NCBI GenBank assembly: GCA_037924335.1
Contig: JAXSMZ010000002.1
Span: forward strand, 70,338-134,337
DNA: 64,000 nucleotides
From: Aquificaceae bacterium
Lineage (GTDB): Bacteria > Aquificota > Aquificia > Aquificales > Aquificaceae
Direction of reading: 5' to 3'
Shown in pieces: positions 39,598-60,072 of the stretch. Under the pieces are notes generated by a model. The model had not been told where the DNA came from and did not search any database. It was given only the letters and a program-made list of their open reading frames with translations. A program made the position numbers and the translations under genes. Positions within the stretch are counted from its first letter, which is position 1; every line of letters starts with the position of its first letter.

Positions 39598-40556
39598 GAT
39601 ACCTGGAAAAGGAAGTTGATAAGATAGCCAGCTACAATAATGGAGCTTCCTACAATGGTTGCAAAAATAGCTATAAGCCTTGGCTTCATGATCTGTTTGA
39701 GTATTATGAACTCGGGAAAAGATAGAGCTGTAGTTGCCATCATAAAAGCCAGTGCAGTACCAATGGGTACACCCTTTGATATAAGAGCCTGTATAACTGG
39801 CAGTATACCAACGGAGTTTGAGTATAGAGGTATACCAATAAGCGTTGCAAGGGGCACTGCAAGGAGTCCACCGCTTTTTACAATACCTTCTACGAAATCC
39901 TGTGGAACATACCCGTGTATAAAACCACCTATAAATATGGCTACGATTATATATATCCAAATCCTCCCAATTATTTGCTTTACATTATTTATGCTGTGTT
40001 CTATCCTATCCTTCATGGTCATACTCTGCCTACTTTGTGCACCCAGTTTAACTTCAAAAACATAGCTTTCTATTACCCTTTTGGGGTCAAGCCTTCCTAT
40101 CAAGAATCCTGAAAACATGGCAACCAACACACCAAAAAGAAGATAAGCAATGGCAATTTTTAACCCAAAAAGAGATAAAAGCATTCCTAAGGCGATCTCA
40201 TTTACCATAGGAGATGCTACTAAAAAGGTAAAGGCTGCACTAAGCGATATACCAGCTTCAACAAATCCAATAAACATGGGTACAGCAGAACACGAGCAGA
40301 AAGGGGTCAAAACTCCTAAAAAAGCTGCAAGGGGCATAGCAATGGTTTTATTTTTTGAAAGTATATCCCTTGTCCTCTCTATAGGAAAGTAGCTTCTTAT
40401 AAAGGATATAACAAAGATGATAATTGTGAGAAGAGTAAATATTTTCAAGCTATCATGGATGAAAAATTCAAGAGCTTCCGATAGCCTTTCCCCCTTTTCC
40501 ATGCTTAGTAGAGAATATACCATGTAGTTTGATATATGTTCATAGATTTCAAACAA
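39594..40556 (-). CDS. ArsP/DUF318 family permease
   Basis: TPFCSCSAVP, ASPMVNE, ALSFPE; next to arsC. Confidence 0.9.
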   Translation of the reverse strand: MFEIYEHISNYMVYSLLSMEKGERLSEALEFFIHDSLKIFTLLTIIIFVISFIRSYFPIERTRDILSKNKTIAMPLAAFLGVLTPFCSCSAVPMFIGFVEAGISLSAAFTFLVASPMVNEIALGMLLSLFGLKIAIAYLLFGVLVAMFSGFLIGRLDPKRVIESYVFEVKLGAQSRQSMTMKDRIEHSINNVKQIIGRIWIYIIVAIFIGGFIHGYVPQDFVEGIVKSGGLLAVPLATLIGIPLYSNSVGILPVIQALISKGVPIGTALAFMMATTALSFPEFIILKQIMKPRLIAIFATIVGSSIIVAGYLINFLFQVS

Positions 40557-40560
40557 TTAA

Positions 40561-40806
40561 TCAATCCTCCATTAAAAGCTCTTCTATCCTTTGAGGTGCG
40601 GGTATTGGTGCTCCAAAGTGTTTTAATTTACCATCCACTACCAAAAGTGGTGTAGTCATGACGCCGTACTTTAAAACTTCCTTTACATCTATAACTTTTT
40701 CCACGGTTGCTTGTAAATTTTTAGCCTCTACAATCTTGGATACTATTTGGTAGAGTAGCTCGCAGTTCTTACAGTTGGACGTACTTATTATTTGTACATT
40801 TTTCAT
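40561..40806 (-). CDS. Small thioredoxin-like redox protein (Thioredoxin_3)
   Basis: CKNC, YGVMTTPLLVVDG. Confidence 0.88.
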   Translation of the reverse strand: MKNVQIISTSNCKNCELLYQIVSKIVEAKNLQATVEKVIDVKEVLKYGVMTTPLLVVDGKLKHFGAPIPAPQRIEELLMED

Positions 40807-40808
40807 GG

Positions 40809-41225
40809 CTATACCCGCTCCAGAAGTTTCTTTACTCTACTCTTTATTTCATCTCTTATCTTTCTAAAAAAGGCCATCCTCTCATCCTCCGAACCAGAAG
40901 CCTTTGCTGGGTCTGGAAGGTTCCAATGTTCAGTGCGTGCACCTGGAATGTACGGACAATTCTCGGCAGCGTCTCCACACAGAGTTATTATAAGGTCCAT
41001 TTCAGGGTATGGTATCTCATCAAGAGGTTTGGAGATCTGTTTTGATATGTCTATACCATCCTCTTCCATAACTTTTATGGCCAAAGGATGAACGTATCCC
41101 ACTGGATTTGACCCAGCAGAATACACTTCTACGTTCTTCCCAAAGAGCTTTGCAAAATACTTGGCGTAGCCTTCTGCCATCTGACTTCTTGCAGAGTTAC
41201 CAGTGCATATAAATCCTATCTTCAT
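40809..41225 (-). CDS. arsC: Arsenate reductase (thioredoxin-coupled, LMWP fold)
   Basis: CTGNSARSQMAEG, TLCGDAAENCP, DP. Confidence 0.92.
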   Translation of the reverse strand: MKIGFICTGNSARSQMAEGYAKYFAKLFGKNVEVYSAGSNPVGYVHPLAIKVMEEDGIDISKQISKPLDEIPYPEMDLIITLCGDAAENCPYIPGARTEHWNLPDPAKASGSEDERMAFFRKIRDEIKSRVKKLLERV

Positions 41226-41226
41226 C

Positions 41227-42066
41227 TTAGTACCCAAAAAGCTCTTTATGGAGAAAACCATCAAAGACCTTACAGACGCTTCCTTCCAGAAACACCTCTC
41301 TTAGCTCATCATCAAAATCTATCTTCAAAACGTCCCCACCTTTTGTTACAACATCTATTGGCTTATCCTTTACCAGCCCCTTTTTATAACTCACAATGGC
41401 AGCAGATGCAGCTCCAGTACCGCAAGCAAGGGTTTCACTCTCTACTCCCCTCTCGTAGGTTCTTATTCTAACACTCTTCCCAGAGGTAACCTTTACAAAG
41501 GTGGCGTTTGTCCCATAGGGTTTGAACTCTTCATGAAACCTTATACTTCTTCCGTATTTTACCACATCAAAGTTTTCAATGTCCTCAACCAGCATTACAA
41601 AGTGAGGTACTCCAGTGTTTATAAAGCTACCATCCAGTTTTTCACTATTTATCCATACTGTCATATCCCTATAGCCATGTGGCTGTGTAAGAAGAACTTT
41701 TACCCTTTTACCCTTTTCTAAAACTCTTGCTTTGACGACACCTACCAAAGTTTCGAATCTTACATCCTCTCCAGTTATACCGTTCTCGTAGGCGAACCTA
41801 ACGGCACACCTTGAACCATTCCCACACATACCAGCAACGGAACCATCAGAGTTAAAAAATTGCCACTTGAAATCGTTCTGTGGGTCATCTGGGTCTTCTA
41901 TAAGAATGAGTCCATCAGCCCCAACCCCTGTATGCTGTGCGCAGACTTTTACAACAAACTCCTTCATGCCTATACCAAGAGCTTTTATAAACTCTTCAAC
42001 TTCTCCCCTTCTGTTGTCAAAAACAACAAAGTCGTTCCCAGAACCGTGAAGTTTTATAAACCTCAT
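41227..42066 (-). CDS. dapF: Diaminopimelate epimerase
   Basis: HGSGNDF, MCGNGSRC, YERGVESETLACGTG. Confidence 0.97.
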   Translation of the reverse strand: MRFIKLHGSGNDFVVFDNRRGEVEEFIKALGIGMKEFVVKVCAQHTGVGADGLILIEDPDDPQNDFKWQFFNSDGSVAGMCGNGSRCAVRFAYENGITGEDVRFETLVGVVKARVLEKGKRVKVLLTQPHGYRDMTVWINSEKLDGSFINTGVPHFVMLVEDIENFDVVKYGRSIRFHEEFKPYGTNATFVKVTSGKSVRIRTYERGVESETLACGTGAASAAIVSYKKGLVKDKPIDVVTKGGDVLKIDFDDELREVFLEGSVCKVFDGFLHKELFGY

Positions 42067-42094
42067 ACTTTAATTTTAGCTTAAATTATTATTT

Positions 42095-42667
42095 ATGGAC
42101 AGAAAAGAGGAGATACTGAGGCTGATAGAGGAGGGTTATAACAACGTAAAGTCTCTTTCTCAGCACTTTGGCGTTTCTCTTATGACAATATACAGGGATG
42201 TAAGGGACCTAGAGAAGGAAGGGAAGATAGTAAGAAAGCATGGAGAGCTAAAGCTTAAAGAGGAAGAAGCCAAAGATGAGAAAGTGGATGTCTGTTTTTA
42301 CTGTACCAAGCAGGTAGACAAGAGGCTTGAGTTTATTTATCATCTAAAGGGGAGGAAGATAAAAGCCTGTTGTGCTCACTGTGGGCTTTTACTGTATAAG
42401 GATATAAAAGAGGATGATGTGGAATCTTGCATGACTTGGGACTTTATAACTGGAAACCCCATAAGTTGCTACTCTGCCTGGTACGTGGTAGGGTCATCGG
42501 CTCTTCCGTGCTGTAGCCCATCCGCTATAGCTTTTGCCAACAGAGAGGATGCTCAGAAGTTTGCCAAGGGTTTTGGTGGTGCGGTTTTGGACTTTGAAAG
42601 GGCCGTTAAGGGAATAGTCGAGCTTATGAAAAGGGGACAGAGGGTGGAGTTTATAGCAAAAGGATGA
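42095..42667 (+). CDS. DeoR-type HTH regulator with Cys-rich NosL-like metal-binding domain (YcnK-like)
   Basis: FGVSLMTIYRDV HTH; CFYC, CCAHCG, PCCSP, AF...AQKF..GFGG. Confidence 0.85.
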   Translation: MDRKEEILRLIEEGYNNVKSLSQHFGVSLMTIYRDVRDLEKEGKIVRKHGELKLKEEEAKDEKVDVCFYCTKQVDKRLEFIYHLKGRKIKACCAHCGLLLYKDIKEDDVESCMTWDFITGNPISCYSAWYVVGSSALPCCSPSAIAFANREDAQKFAKGFGGAVLDFERAVKGIVELMKRGQRVEFIAKG

Positions 42668-43266
42668 TGTACATAGCAATACTTCTTATCTTGTTCCTCA
42701 GCGCTTGCGCTCCAGTCCCTAAGCTTGTACCGAGGGAAAGCCAAGTTGTGAAGAAGGAAGACAATGCCCTTCTTTATCAGGAGGATAACGTAAAAGTTCT
42801 TGTACGCTCTAACGCATGGAAGTATTCCCCATCAGACCTCACAAGCTATATAACACCCATTTACATAGAGGTCAAAAACCTCTCCAACAAAGAACTCATC
42901 ATAAACAGACAGGACGTATACCTAATGGATGAAAAGGGCAACCAGTACAACGCCCTTTCTCCATCGGATGTTGTCTCCGCTGTTGCTGCATGGCCAGACG
43001 TGAGTTTCTCTATAGGCATGGCTTACTACTCCTCCCCCTTCTGGTTTGGCTGGTATCCTTACTATCCTTACCCAACTGCCAGGAGCTATCCAGACATCGC
43101 CAACTACGCCTTTATATACGGTAGCATAGAGCCAGGAGCTGTGTTAAAGGGTTTTGTGTACTTTCAGAAGGTTCCCAAAGATGTAAAGAGTCTGTCTTTA
43201 AAACTTGTCTATCATATATCAGGAGAGAGGAAAGCCGTCAGCTTTCCTTTTGATGTGATAAGGTAG
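42664..43266 (+). CDS. Hypothetical lipoprotein
   Basis: Lipobox LSAC; Tyr/Pro-rich segment; GFVYF. Confidence 0.85.
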   Translation: MMYIAILLILFLSACAPVPKLVPRESQVVKKEDNALLYQEDNVKVLVRSNAWKYSPSDLTSYITPIYIEVKNLSNKELIINRQDVYLMDEKGNQYNALSPSDVVSAVAAWPDVSFSIGMAYYSSPFWFGWYPYYPYPTARSYPDIANYAFIYGSIEPGAVLKGFVYFQKVPKDVKSLSLKLVYHISGERKAVSFPFDVIR

Positions 43267-43274
43267 TTTTTAAC

Positions 43275-43502
43275 ATAAATCTTGCAAGAAGTCTCCATCC
43301 TCTATAGGGTGGAGATGAATTGCAAAAACTTGACAAAGTTCATATGTCAGTCTATAATTATTTGTAGCTCTGAAAACCAAAGAGTTGGGCTCACCCACCT
43401 AACGGGTGGTAGGGCTGGAACGGTCCGAACTGAAGCCTGTGGAGAGGTGAAAAGCCTCCATGAAGCAGGAAGCTCCATCTTCTATAAGATGGAGTAGTTC
43501 AC
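43275..43502 (+). mobile_element. Non-autonomous IS200/IS605-type mini-element A
   Basis: Follows TTAAC; left hairpin CTCCATCCT-CTAT-AGGGTGGAG; right hairpin CTCCATCTT-CTAT-AAGATGGAG, then TTCAC; homolog at 59859-60072. Confidence 0.85.
43330..43358 (+). promoter_or_regulatory. Consensus sigma70 promoter inside element A
   Basis: TTGACA-17 bp-TATAAT. Confidence 0.85.
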
Positions 43503-43522
43503 ATATACTGTCCTTACAGGGA
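43365..43522 (+). ncRNA. Putative TnpB omegaRNA/reRNA (scaffold plus ~16-20 nt flanking guide)
   Basis: GGTAGGGCTGGAACGGTCCGAACTGAAGCCTGTGGAGA...GAAGCAGGAAGC-hairpin resembles IS605 tnpB 3'/right-end RNA; stems covary with copy B; 5' and 3' ends estimated. Confidence 0.65.
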
Positions 43523-44513
43523 ATGGTATCTTTATGTTCTCCTCCTCGTATCTCTTTTTAAGCCTTTTTATGAACTCATGTCTTACCAAAAACTGGGCAT
43601 CAGGGTCCATTACTCTTAAGATGACGCTAAAGTTTATGCTAAAGTCTCCAAAGCTCGAGTACCTTATGAAGGGTTCAAATTCTGGGTCTGCTCCCTCTAC
43701 AGTCTTTTGAACCTCCCTTGCCACATCTACCGTCACGCTTTCCACCTTCTCAAGGTCCGAAGAGTAGCTCACACCTACAGGGATAATCAGAGCCATGGAT
43801 GGCTCTGGTTTTCTGTAGTTTACCACCACAGAGCTAACAAGCTTTGAGTTTGGTACTACAACTATGTTGTTGTCCCTCCTTTTTATTACAGTATTCATCC
43901 AAGTTATATCCACAACAAAGCCCTCTTCCCCATCCTCTAACTTTACAAAGTCCCCTATCTCTACCTGTCTCGATGCGATTATATTAAGCCCAGAAAAGAA
44001 GTTGGACAAAGTTCCTTGGAGTGCTAAAGAAATAGCAAGAGCACCTATGCCTAAGGTTGTTATAAAGTGTGTGACTGGAACACCTAAGAAGTTGAGCAAA
44101 GTTATCACACCAAGGGCTATTACGGTAGCCCTTATAAGAGCGTATATCAACGCTGTTGGTGGTAAAGATATGTTGGACTTCTTTATATAAAGTTTTATTA
44201 GCCCTACAGTTAGCTCAGAAGCGGCAAAAGTAAAAGAGAATATCAGCAAACCTTCTATAAGTTTTTCTAAAAGTGATGCGTACCTTGTGTGTTTTTGTAA
44301 ATATTCGGAAAAATAGATAGCCAAGTAGAGTGAAAAAGAGAGGATCCAAAGTACAGATGGTAGCCTTACAGCTCTATGTAGAGTCTCAAATAAAGATACT
44401 CCTTTTAGCTTTTTCTTGAGAATGTGGAAGGTAATATATCGTAAGAAGAGAAGGAAAAAGGAAGAAACAAAGAAAATGAGCAAAGGTGATACATACACTT
44501 CCCAGTAATTCAA
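43482..44513 (-). CDS. mscS: Small-conductance mechanosensitive channel
   Basis: LALQGTLSNFFSG, IGDFV, VPNSKL, VGVSYSSD, IPFP. Confidence 0.93.
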   Translation of the reverse strand: MNYWEVYVSPLLIFFVSSFFLLFLRYITFHILKKKLKGVSLFETLHRAVRLPSVLWILSFSLYLAIYFSEYLQKHTRYASLLEKLIEGLLIFSFTFAASELTVGLIKLYIKKSNISLPPTALIYALIRATVIALGVITLLNFLGVPVTHFITTLGIGALAISLALQGTLSNFFSGLNIIASRQVEIGDFVKLEDGEEGFVVDITWMNTVIKRRDNNIVVVPNSKLVSSVVVNYRKPEPSMALIIPVGVSYSSDLEKVESVTVDVAREVQKTVEGADPEFEPFIRYSSFGDFSINFSVILRVMDPDAQFLVRHEFIKRLKKRYEEENIKIPFPVRTVYVNYSIL

Positions 44514-45169
44514 AAATAATACCTCCCCTTTTTATAAAAGACCCTTGCCAGAATATAGCCCACTCCAAAACCTCCAATGTGAGCAAACCATGCAACACCT
44601 CCAAACTTAGCAAAGGGCAAAGTAAGAATACCGTTTATGACCTGAATGATTATCCAGAAACCTATGAAAAAAACGGCAGGAACTTCCATAAAGGTCAGTA
44701 CAAAGAACACAGGTACCAAAGAAAGTACCCTTGCATGTGGGAACATCCAAAGGTACGCTCCCATAACTCCGCTGATGGCACCGCTGGCTCCAACCATAGG
44801 CACAGATGTCCCACCCAAAAGGAAGCTAACAAAAGTTTGCAAAAAAGCTGCACCAACACCAGACAATAAATAGAAGGTCAAGTACCTTATCTTTCCAAGC
44901 CTGTCCTCTACGTTATCCCCAAAAACCCAAAGAAACCACATGTTCCCTATAATGTGTAGCCAGCTACCGTGTAAAAACATATGCGTTAAAAGGGTGTAAG
45001 GCTTGTGGAAGACTTCAGCAGGAACAAGTCCATAAGAATAAACAAAAGCGTTCATCCTCTGTTCGTCTAAGCTAACCTCAAAAAGCCACACCAGAGAAGA
45101 AACAACTATCAAGGCTATGTTCACAAGGGGAAAACTTCTGCTCCTGTTTATATCCCTTATTGGAATCAT
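44510..45169 (-). CDS. Rhomboid intramembrane serine protease
   Basis: HMFLHGSWLHIIGNM, GASGAI, AHIGG. Confidence 0.95.
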   Translation of the reverse strand: MIPIRDINRSRSFPLVNIALIVVSSLVWLFEVSLDEQRMNAFVYSYGLVPAEVFHKPYTLLTHMFLHGSWLHIIGNMWFLWVFGDNVEDRLGKIRYLTFYLLSGVGAAFLQTFVSFLLGGTSVPMVGASGAISGVMGAYLWMFPHARVLSLVPVFFVLTFMEVPAVFFIGFWIIIQVINGILTLPFAKFGGVAWFAHIGGFGVGYILARVFYKKGRYYF

Positions 45170-45343
45170 AGAAATAGTATAAAAAATTTCTTTAATTCTA
45201 AATGGCAGTGTCAGGGTGTTTCAAAAATACGTCCCTGCAGTAAGCACGGGACCATCTTCTCATTTTGAAAAGCCTCATGAAATATTAACAAATTCTTCAC
45301 CAAAGTATATATTATATTCTTTTATATCGCTGGAGGTTATGTT

Positions 45344-47098
45344 ATGACAAGGAAAGGAGCGGATATAGTTATAGAGACTCTTAAGGAAGAGGGTGTTGAA
45401 CATATATTTGGACACCCTGGTGGTGCCATAATGGAAGTGTACGATGCCCTTTACAGAGATGGAAGTATAAAACATATATTGACTAGGCATGAGCAGGGGG
45501 CTGGCCATATGGCAGAAGGTTATGCAAAAGCCACAGGAAAGGTTGGAGTTGCCATGTCTACATCGGGACCAGGAGCAACAAACCTTGTTACAGCCATAGC
45601 GGACGCTTACATGGACTCTGTCCCCGTTGTCTTCATAACTGGGCAGGTACCAACTCATCTTATAGGAAACGATGCTTTCCAAGAGGTTGACATAGTTGGA
45701 ATAACAAGACCTATAACAAAGCATAACTTCCTTGTAAAGGATATAGAATCCCTGCCCCTTATAATAAGGGAGGCCTTTTACATAGCAAGGGCAGGAAGAC
45801 CTGGACCAGTTCTCATAGATATACCGAAGGATATAACTCAGAAGTTTTCGGATGTTGCCATACCAGACATGGAAAAGGTCATAAATTCCCTTCCAGGTTA
45901 CAAGCCACACACAGAAGGAAATCCACAGCAGATAAGAAAGGCTGCAAGGCTAATAATGGAGGCAAAGAGGCCTGTTTTGTACGTGGGTGGTGGAGCCATC
46001 CATGCTGAGGCTAATAAGGAAGTTTTGGAACTTGCAGAACTGATGAACATACCAGTCACCACCACAAACATGGGAAAGGGTGCTTTTCCAGAAACCCATC
46101 CCCTTGCACTCCATATGCTTGGAATGCATGGAACTTACTATGCCAACATGGCTGTTTACAACTGCGACCTCCTTATAGCAGTAGGGGCAAGGTTTGACGA
46201 TAGAGTAACTGGTAAAGTGGAGGAATTTGCGCCGCAGGCTACCATTATACACATAGACATAGACCCAGCATCCATATCGAAGAACATAGTTGTTGATGTG
46301 CCCATAGTAGGAGATGTAAAAATTGTCCTTAGAAAGCTTATGGATGAGATAAAGAAGGAAGGTGCCAAGGTGCTTTTCTTAGAGGAAAGAAACAAATGGG
46401 TAGAACAGATAGAGAGATGGAAAAAGCTACATCCTTTGACCTACAGAAACTCTGACAAAGTCATAAAGCCCCAGTACGTTATAGAACAGATATGGTACGC
46501 AACAAAGGGAGATGCCATAATAGCAACTGGTGTAGGACAGCACCAGATGTGGTCAGCTATGTTTTACAAGTACTCCTTTCCAAGGCAGCTCATAAACTCC
46601 GGTGGGCTTGGTACTATGGGGTTTGGTCTGCCTGCCGGCATAGGAGCAAAGATAGGCAGGGAGGATAAAGAGGTCTTTGTGATAGATGGAGATGGCTCTT
46701 TTATGATGACCATGCAAGAGCTTATAACTGCAGTTCAATACCGTGTGCCTGTAAAGATAGCGATAATAAACAACGGATACCTTGGTATGGTGCGCCAATG
46801 GCAAGAGCTCTTCTATGAAAAGCGTTATTCAGAGGTGGACCTTAGCGTACAGCCAGATTTTGTCAAACTTGCGGAAGCGTGCGGTGCAGTAGGCTTTAGA
46901 GCCCAAAAGCCATCTGAGGTGAGGGAAATAGTAGAGGAAGCTCTAAAGGTTCAGGATAAGCCTGTAGTTATGGACTTTCATGTGGACAGGGAGGAAAACG
47001 TCCTTCCTATGGTACCAGCAGGAAAGTCTTACAAGGATATGATACTTGAGGATGGCAAAAAGGGTGTAGAAGCAGATACAATGTATCTTGTAGGTTGA
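45344..47098 (+). CDS. ilvB: Acetolactate synthase large subunit
   Basis: RHEQGAGH, TSGPGATN, RFDDRVTG, GDGSF...NN. Confidence 0.97.
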   Translation: MTRKGADIVIETLKEEGVEHIFGHPGGAIMEVYDALYRDGSIKHILTRHEQGAGHMAEGYAKATGKVGVAMSTSGPGATNLVTAIADAYMDSVPVVFITGQVPTHLIGNDAFQEVDIVGITRPITKHNFLVKDIESLPLIIREAFYIARAGRPGPVLIDIPKDITQKFSDVAIPDMEKVINSLPGYKPHTEGNPQQIRKAARLIMEAKRPVLYVGGGAIHAEANKEVLELAELMNIPVTTTNMGKGAFPETHPLALHMLGMHGTYYANMAVYNCDLLIAVGARFDDRVTGKVEEFAPQATIIHIDIDPASISKNIVVDVPIVGDVKIVLRKLMDEIKKEGAKVLFLEERNKWVEQIERWKKLHPLTYRNSDKVIKPQYVIEQIWYATKGDAIIATGVGQHQMWSAMFYKYSFPRQLINSGGLGTMGFGLPAGIGAKIGREDKEVFVIDGDGSFMMTMQELITAVQYRVPVKIAIINNGYLGMVRQWQELFYEKRYSEVDLSVQPDFVKLAEACGAVGFRAQKPSEVREIVEEALKVQDKPVVMDFHVDREENVLPMVPAGKSYKDMILEDGKKGVEADTMYLVG

Positions 47099-59574: not shown

Positions 59575-59792
59575 GAAACCTCCACAAGAAGGCTCTCCTT
59601 TTCAAAGGAGAGATGAATTGTGGAAATATGATTAAAATCATACAACAAAAACAAAGAAAAAATTATTATAATAATAATAATAATAATAATATCCTCTGGT
59701 ATGCGGGATATAGCATACCCTACCGTTGGACTGACGGGAAGTTAAGCCCTGAGGAAGGGAAGCTCCTCATTTTAATGAGGAGAGGAAGTCAC
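59575..59792 (+). mobile_element. Non-autonomous IS200/IS605-type mini-element C (different subfamily)
   Basis: Follows TTTAC; left end TCCACAA-GAAGG-CTCTCCTT..AAGGAGAG-ATGAA-TTGTGGA; TACCGTTGGACTGACGGGAAGTTAAGCC; right hairpin CTCCTCAT-TTTA-ATGAGGAG, then GTCAC. Confidence 0.75.
59670..59690 (+). repeat. (AAT)7 microsatellite
   Basis: Read directly from the sequence. Confidence 0.95.
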
Positions 59793-59858
59793 CTACAACG
59801 ATGAGAATATCTCCTTCCTTAATTATTGTCTGCGATGATTGTATGAGCCATTTTTAAC

Positions 59859-60072
59859 ACAACTTTTTGCAAGAAGTCTCCGAGATGAATTGCAAAAAAC
59901 TTGACAAAGAAAGGAAAATAAAATACAATATAAAAAGTCCTGATAACCAAAGGAATGGGCTCACTCACCTAACGGGTGGTAGGGCAGGGACTGTCCGAAC
60001 TCAAGCCTGTGGAGAGGTGAAAAACCTCTATAAAGCAGGAAGCTCCCACTTCTATAAGTGGGAATAGTTCAC
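59859..60072 (+). mobile_element. Non-autonomous IS200/IS605-type mini-element B (homolog of A, left hairpin deleted)
   Basis: Follows TTAAC; colinear with 43275-43502; TTGACA(59901)-17-TACAAT(59924); right hairpin TCCCACTT-CTAT-AAGTGGGA, then TTCAC. Confidence 0.85.

Follow-up and report, generated by a model that had tools for sequence, protein, structure and literature searches.

Gene-less PATE-like elements and standalone omegaRNAs, the original examples of which in OMEGA systems were reportedly IscB RNAs, are the closest described counterparts of the locus analysed here. Meers et al. (PMC10055086) reported that gene-less PATE-like elements often encode omegaRNAs that depend on TnpB supplied in trans, and a donor-joint cleavage model was set out in the same article. 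The ISGst PATEs of Geobacillus stearothermophilus (PMC10055086) are, like the present element, gene-less IS605 derivatives with both ends and an omegaRNA, but the passages of that text devoted to them describe neither a fused promoter nor a retained internal tnpB hairpin, both of which were found here. Standalone omegaRNAs of OMEGA systems (PMC10691335) are likewise mobilised, have no effector or transposase, and are said to act in trans; their role is given as unknown and the corresponding section mentions no hairpin element, whereas a hairpin is present here. The omegaRNAs of typical-clade IS200/IS605 TnpB proteins (orthologs 11, 21, 23, 31 and 68 of PMC10278001; NF038281) have the same core or right end, but according to that study they are cut from the tnpB mRNA, whereas the RNA of the present element is a predicted primary transcript with an internal hairpin at its 5' end. 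Further literature (10.1101/2023.11.20.567912, PMC7290912, PMC13639567 and PMC12558985) also served as background. A sequence-only reading had interpreted the locus as an omegaRNA cassette served in trans by a TnpB encoded elsewhere. This concept is partly supported by the sequence comparisons below, but PMC10055086 and PMC10691335 already contain it, and it is not new. The new part is the retained tnpB-internal hairpin, which that reading overlooked.

The window is a stretch of 64,000 nucleotides from an Aquificaceae genome (contig C2 of a 39-contig assembly), and all positions without a contig label refer to it. The grouping of named records with relatives of this genome, together with the hot-spring runs, likewise points to an Aquificaceae host. 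The features of the locus are as follows.

43269..43273, plus strand: target and transposon-adjacent motif (TAM) TTTAA, host DNA outside the element, from the empty sites and the left ends of the family
43274..43502, plus strand: gene-less IS605/IS1341-derived element (PATE), whose 229 nt are skipped at the X8 junction, with further copies in the genome
43282..43325, plus strand: left-end subterminal hairpin, core 43293-43314, ssDNA fold z -5.3
43330..43358, plus strand: sigma-70-type promoter, TTGACA (43330-35), 17-nt spacer and TATAAT (43353-58), 12/12 match
43365..43387, plus strand: 5' hairpin with the 9-nt loop GAAAACCAA (43372-43380), pair probabilities 0.53-0.74, with covariation
43388..43411, plus strand: optional hairpin from the last tnpB codons (GLTHLTGG), missing in some relatives
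43412..43471, plus strand: omegaRNA core, with a GAA-loop hairpin (43412-43426), a predicted pseudoknot arm (43427-43431) and a RAGATH-18-like stem (43436-43471)
43472..43502, plus strand: right end, with a hairpin (43472-43495, ssDNA fold z -3.0), a predicted pseudoknot arm (43496-43500) and the end motif TTCAC (43498-43502)
43503..43520, plus strand: predicted guide in the flank, antisense to the 3' coding end of mscS
43482..44513, minus strand: convergent MscS-family gene, the 3' end of which overlaps the element's right end, MscS models scoring below their curated cut-offs
59858..60072, plus strand (C2): second, diverged copy of 215 bp, 77% identical

The boundaries of the element were determined from its empty allele. 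A 12.6-kb contig of run X8, with flanks about 95% identical to those of the element, fused 43273 to 43503, with exactly 229 nt missing and no duplication; the same empty site was found in genome G006, from which the element was absent. The element therefore spans 43274-43502 (229 bp) and starts at C43274. The sequence-only reading was correct that a discrete element existed, and its length of 228 bp was replaced by the value from the junction. Its proposed TAM, TTAAC, was excluded by the empty site in X8. Because the X8 and G006 empty sites join 43273 to 43503, the TAM is TTTAA, which also preceded 22 of the 26 left ends of the family. The insertion lies 3' of a 4-5-nt motif with the target not duplicated, a subterminal hairpin is present at each end, neither tnpA nor tnpB occurs among the open reading frames of 43274-43502, the ends are common to the coding parent, and multiple copies occupy unrelated sites. 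The left hairpin, promoter, structured region, right hairpin and TTCAC were all present in the order that had been read from the sequence, and the description as a protein-less mini-element of IS605 type was borne out by its terminal hairpins, its precise insertion and the ends shared with tnpB-bearing copies. By these sequence features, 43274-43502 is a gene-less IS605/IS1341 derivative (PATE). The element was mobile in the recent past, and it is a selfish transposon derivative rather than a host system.

The left end (43274-43323) was identical to that of a tnpB-bearing copy on C16. The promoter matched the TTGACA-17-TATAAT consensus perfectly and lay directly 5' of the scaffold region, as had been claimed; only 16 such perfect sites were present in the genome, and three of them were copies of the mini-element. 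An RNA start was predicted near 43365, downstream of TATAAT. The structured part then measures 138 nt (43365-43502), in agreement with the estimate of about 135 nt, and 43365-43522 folded at z -2.45. Full elements, with tnpB or with tnpA and tnpB, had a promoter at the same place behind the left hairpin. Hence, the promoter was inherited, and its new acquisition was excluded. As a separate observation, a cognate tnpB element at C1:215960-216255 is inverted and lies just behind a perfect promoter of a different left-end family; the left end of that promoter family recurs in the gene-less element at C19:520-726.

A genome-wide search for copies and for a tnpB-bearing parent with the same ends found both. 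The gene-less copies lay at unrelated sites and formed a multi-locus family with different guides, as had been suggested. The copy on C4 was 96% identical, with a 3-nt deletion in the stem of the 9-nt-loop hairpin; the copy on C23 was 91% identical and contained a gap of N; the copy on C20 had lost the promoter and the 9-nt-loop hairpin; and the copy on C19 had a different left end. The diverged copy at 59858-60072 was preceded by TTTAA and retained TTGACA-17-TACAAT, the omegaRNA core and the TTCAC end, with the loop GATAACCAA at 59942-59950 and a left hairpin shorter by 15 nt. Two positions were recorded in addition: the C4 copy (C4:2101-2326) is located between the ends of open reading frames, and the C23 copy (C23:8380-8604) appears to disrupt a host open reading frame.

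The last 117 bp of the element were 94% identical to the 3' half of a tnpB on C37. The TnpB zinc-ribbon family had 23 matches in the genome, with several TnpB families represented, and no complete cognate tnpB was found in the 39-contig assembly. The 5' half on C16 carried a frameshift and was cut off at the contig end, the pieces on C37 and C27 were without their 5' parts, and the tnpB elements on C1, C14 and C39 were interrupted by contig ends. The public contigs likewise yielded fragments of the cognate tnpB only, with no contig spanning the stretch. Uninterrupted cognate open reading frames (L055 and L049) were found in relatives, and G003 and G004 of the same genus contained such frames. 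The best-scoring model for the cognate TnpB was NF038281, and the 392-aa product of L055 scored 419.9 bits against it (cut-off 425). The cognate pieces retained the RuvC residues D, E and D, leaving the suggestion of a TnpB-derived or TldR protein unsupported. A TldR guide RNA was rejected on the same catalytic residues and on the absence of a second genomic target. oppF-TldR shares the TTTAA TAM with the element, as described in 10.1101/2023.11.30.569447, but in contrast to the TldR guide RNAs covered there, a nuclease-dead cognate, a fixed locus and a conserved target were all missing here. The same right end was also present on an element with tnpA and tnpB, L048 in G038. Neither a Y1 TnpA nor a resolvase was found in the 39-contig assembly and Y1 TnpA was present in one of seven genomes of the genus, so the element system may be dormant in this genome.

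The scaffold was compared with those of relatives and of tested omegaRNAs. The identity to the tnpB 3' end of the same genome, covariation, and a core common to tested omegaRNAs together bore out the proposal of an omegaRNA scaffold; it is homologous to that of the cognate tnpB and terminates at the right end. In 25 gene-less cores chosen from 60 non-coding rows, 89.7% of 735 cells were paired, compared with 40-48% in slid controls, and two-sided changes occurred in 14 of the 30 core pairs. Pairing of the predicted pseudoknot held in 82% of cells, and two-sided changes were absent there. Of the 178 genomes examined in the phylum, 41 contained the compact core, and a reversed-pattern control gave none. 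The GCCUGUGGAG...GAAGCAGGAA core of the element recurs in the in-vitro-active omegaRNAs of orthologs 11, 21 and 23, and the TAM TTTAA is used by orthologs 31 and 68, whose ends are GUAGUUCAC (file S2 of PMC10278001, for the entries concerned). The covariance-model scan that had been proposed gave only a sub-threshold match. The central stem matched both ends of the RAGATH-18 model (RF03064; IS607 TnpB reRNA, PMC11061315) at 31.5 bits, below the gathering score of 44.9, and relatives, including tnpB-bearing copies, scored 29-36 bits and were likewise below threshold. The element differs from RAGATH-18/IS607 reRNAs in lacking the long apical stem and in having IS605-type hairpin ends; moreover, the TAM given for those systems in the pertinent part of PMC11061315 is AGGAG or GAGGG. 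Identity with a RAGATH-18/IS607 reRNA was therefore rejected on the sub-threshold score, the better fit of the cognate protein to NF038281 and the TTTAA TAM. No HEARO match up to E 5 was found with Rfam in 40000-47000, and a HEARO or IscB omegaRNA was rejected on this basis.

The predicted RNA begins with 23 nt (43365-43387) that do not derive from the 3' end of tnpB; these nucleotides form the 9-nt-loop hairpin, with the loop consensus GAWAACCAA. Within 120 nt of the core, the loop motif was present in 19 of 38 gene-less loci that had not been chosen for it, some of these rows being remnants or misclassified tnpB ends, and at that position in 0 of 49 tnpB-bearing loci (11 rows that were short or contained N were left out of this comparison). 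After the gene-less loci were collapsed, the motif remained in 12 of 31, against 2.3 expected; all counts given here are inflated by kinship. A further 16 loci were selected by the loop, and none entered the 38-locus count; 12 of them form a separate set, and three rows each occur in alignments A1 and A3. In rows with an adjacent promoter called by script, the motif began 13-17 nt past the -10 box. All seven stem pairs had two-sided changes across 14 motif-bearing rows. A metagenome pattern consisting of a -10 box, the loop and the core, in which the stem was not required, retrieved 21 loci, and the remaining scaffold parts were present in 18 of them; in 16 of those 18, at least six of seven pairs closed the loop, compared with 2 of 167 background loops. 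The 18 loci fell, by eye, into about 10 sequence families with unrelated ends. The loop-selected genome scan added Campylobacterota and two Thermoproteati archaea. In a tree of 86 core segments, built on 95 columns with imperfect, script-assigned labels, a single clade for the 19 loop-bearing elements was rejected (p-AU 6e-5); alternatively, ends may have been exchanged with parents by recombination. The hairpin is not obligatory, being absent from the other 19 of the 38 loci, lost from the C20 copy and damaged in the stem of the C4 copy. No Rfam family matched the internal hairpin near its gathering score, and no pairing partner of the loop inside the scaffold was seen by eye across variants.

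Several further gene-less loci were noted. G014, also of the Aquificaceae, contains many gene-less elements with a GTCAC right end and the same promoter-hairpin-scaffold order (L012, L027, L038, L102, L116 and L120-L122). Tandem gene-less elements occur at L073 in a Campylobacterales MAG. The loop-bearing elements of the two Thermoproteati archaea are L069 and L071, where a bacterial promoter was not evident. The 3' parts of the promoter-hairpin-core elements L229 and L234 are without an IS605-type terminal hairpin, and these two are possibly IS607-derived.

The same loop was found inside tnpB genes, where it is read as E-N-Q or D-N-Q codons seven codons before the RuvC-II glutamate, about 405-475 nt ahead of the right end, and caps a long stem. 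The hairpin formed in 14 of 34 non-redundant tnpB windows, against 4.9 expected from synonymous shuffles. Codon usage at the site was biased, with AAC in 17 of 19 cases (258/606 elsewhere) and CAA in 17 of 17 (269/433 elsewhere). Of 66 tnpB windows, 37 had the motif in frame and 10 had it in a shifted frame, and 19 lacked it; peptides from the shifted frame include A-I-T-K-Q and A-K-T-K-P. The loop sequence was present in 7 of 10 distant plasmid tnpB genes, and the exact loop was folded in three. Furthermore, all three IS607-annotated tnpB genes (Thermus and Rhodothermus plasmids) folded a 9-nt loop with variant letters in a shifted frame; two of the three carry it 366 nt upstream of the same core, and two adjoin an IS607 transposase. 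That the hairpin is kept in different reading frames argues for a nucleotide-level signal. Since the hairpin occurs beside both transposase types, it would go with TnpB. The retained hairpin is thus well supported by sequence comparison, and it likely aids TnpB RNA loading or stability. It is not needed for cutting, because it is missing from the processed omegaRNA (152 nt) of an ortholog with the ENQ peptide (PMC10278001) and scaffolds without it were scored active (PMC10278001, file S2, for the entries concerned).

The retained tnpB-internal hairpin appears to be undescribed; no description was found in a literature search that covered the text of openly accessible papers. Recoding of tnpB would destroy the hairpin, and ISDra2, the best-studied TnpB, has no ENQ peptide and appears to lack the hairpin at the peptide level; possibly it was overlooked for these two reasons, and repeated natural deletions point to these 23 nt. 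The finding bears on how TnpB finds its own RNA and on what standalone omegaRNAs do. The locus also provides a compact cassette for guide expression; it comes from a hot-spring organism, and its predicted TAM is TTTAA.

The predicted guide fitted only the empty site of the element itself. None of the guides of 12 right ends had a perfect 12-mer next to the TAM at another site of the genome, the best having 2-4 mismatches in 12, and a second target of the predicted guide was likewise absent from the genome. With the one guide tested on viral contigs, L240:201-220 matched TTTAA and guide bases 1-15, where the identity ended; this match is probably due to chance (rough chance estimate 0.1-0.5). 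The right end of the element supplies the last codons and the stop of the convergent mscS, and the predicted transcript would extend antisense into the mscS 3' end. The neighbour on the opposite side from mscS is a gene without an NCBIfam match.

The reading favoured here, which we consider somewhat better than an even bet, is that a gene-less PATE carries a promoter, a tnpB-type hairpin and a scaffold that produce a guide RNA, which TnpB would use in trans to cut the empty site and thereby promote retention. Two internal deletions would have left the promoter, hairpin and scaffold in place. RNA polymerase would start at about 43365, pass TTCAC and run on into the flank, giving an RNA of about 140 nt plus the guide, and a cognate TnpB made elsewhere would bind this RNA in trans and trim its 5' end; in vitro, trimming by TnpB affects the 5' end of the RNA and leaves the 3' end as it is, as reported in the relevant part of PMC10278001. 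The hairpin would mark the RNA for TnpB loading or stabilise the precursor and would then be trimmed off. The complex would cut TTTAA plus the right flank at the excised site or at an incoming empty allele, and repair after the cut would restore the element, so that its retention would be favoured. Mobilisation would be carried out by TnpA in trans. A broader proposal is more tentative and, in our estimate, falls somewhat short of an even chance: the 9-nt-loop hairpin may be a second TnpB RNA signal that is overprinted before the RuvC-II codon, is kept in different frames and in both IS605 and IS607, and serves as a loading tag. Gene-less elements of bacteria and archaea would then have been reduced repeatedly to promoter, tag and scaffold, as minimal TnpB parasites and natural templates for better guide expression.

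Other explanations were weighed against the favoured reading. The element may be an inert product of deletion, namely a PATE that was mobilised by a TnpA in trans, in which promoter and scaffold are passengers adjoining the ends and from which no functional guide is made. The inherited promoter, the promoterless and damaged copies and the lack of an assembled intact tnpB or tnpA are compatible with this, but it leaves unexplained why, in many end families, two deletions spared an internal tnpB hairpin lying about 400 nt from the right end and why its stem covaries in a non-coding context, and we regard it as unlikely. Alternatively, the RNA may be made and the hairpin may act as a regulatory module that serves as a decoy for TnpB or inhibits it, recruits an RNA-binding protein of the host or blocks an RNase; the elements would then titrate or dampen TnpB. 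Its position at the predicted RNA 5' end, 13-17 nt past the -10 box, would suit such a module, and the part of PMC10278001 on AmaTnpB describes an mRNA segment beside the RuvC-II codon that inhibits cleavage and is proposed to pair with the omegaRNA. Like the tnpB-internal hairpin, this segment is a feature of tnpB mRNA near that codon, and it affects TnpB, but it lies 3' of the codon, belongs to a TnpB with another scaffold and shows no matching 9-nt loop in that account, and by this analogy it is a lead only for the role of the hairpin. The entire scaffold and the guide junction are also conserved, which speaks against a regulatory module, and this explanation is held to be improbable.

A role of the hairpin in DNA, for example in the excised ssDNA circle, in priming or as a protein-binding site kept for transposition, seems very improbable: IS200/IS605 elements move as ssDNA and their hairpins are recognised (as outlined in PMC10055086), but the hairpin also occurs in IS607-type tnpB genes, following TnpB and scaffold rather than the Y1 enzyme, and its stems include pairs of G-U type. 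Host domestication, as a TldR-like regulator, an anti-phage guide or an antisense RNA against mscS, could draw on the antisense overlap and on the L240 match. The insertion is missing in the approximately 95% identical strain, copies lie at unrelated sites with the C23 copy apparently interrupting an open reading frame, the cognate pieces keep their catalytic residues, none of the 12 guides has a perfect second target, and the viral match ends at base 15. The domestication or mscS antisense reading is therefore largely refuted and is given hardly any weight.

Some neighbouring features were also observed. A right-end remnant of a different TnpB family, with a GTCAC end, lies at 59705-59792 on the plus strand of the window, about 65 nt before the 59858-60072 copy, and a similar remnant occurs on C4 near 54900. 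A further multi-copy TnpB family was seen at C2:70158-70334, just before the window start, at C18:239, at C4:55091 and at about 10 contig ends. It has distinct ends, with the right end GAGGAACTAT, and its internally deleted copies retain the left end, the tnpB tail and the right end; we take this family to be IS607-like. Upstream of the element, 42095-42667 on the plus strand encodes a small HTH protein whose C-terminal part is rich in cysteine, presumably DeoR/NosL-like, and 42664-43266 on the same strand encodes a probable lipoprotein that has no NCBIfam match and is degenerate in G006.
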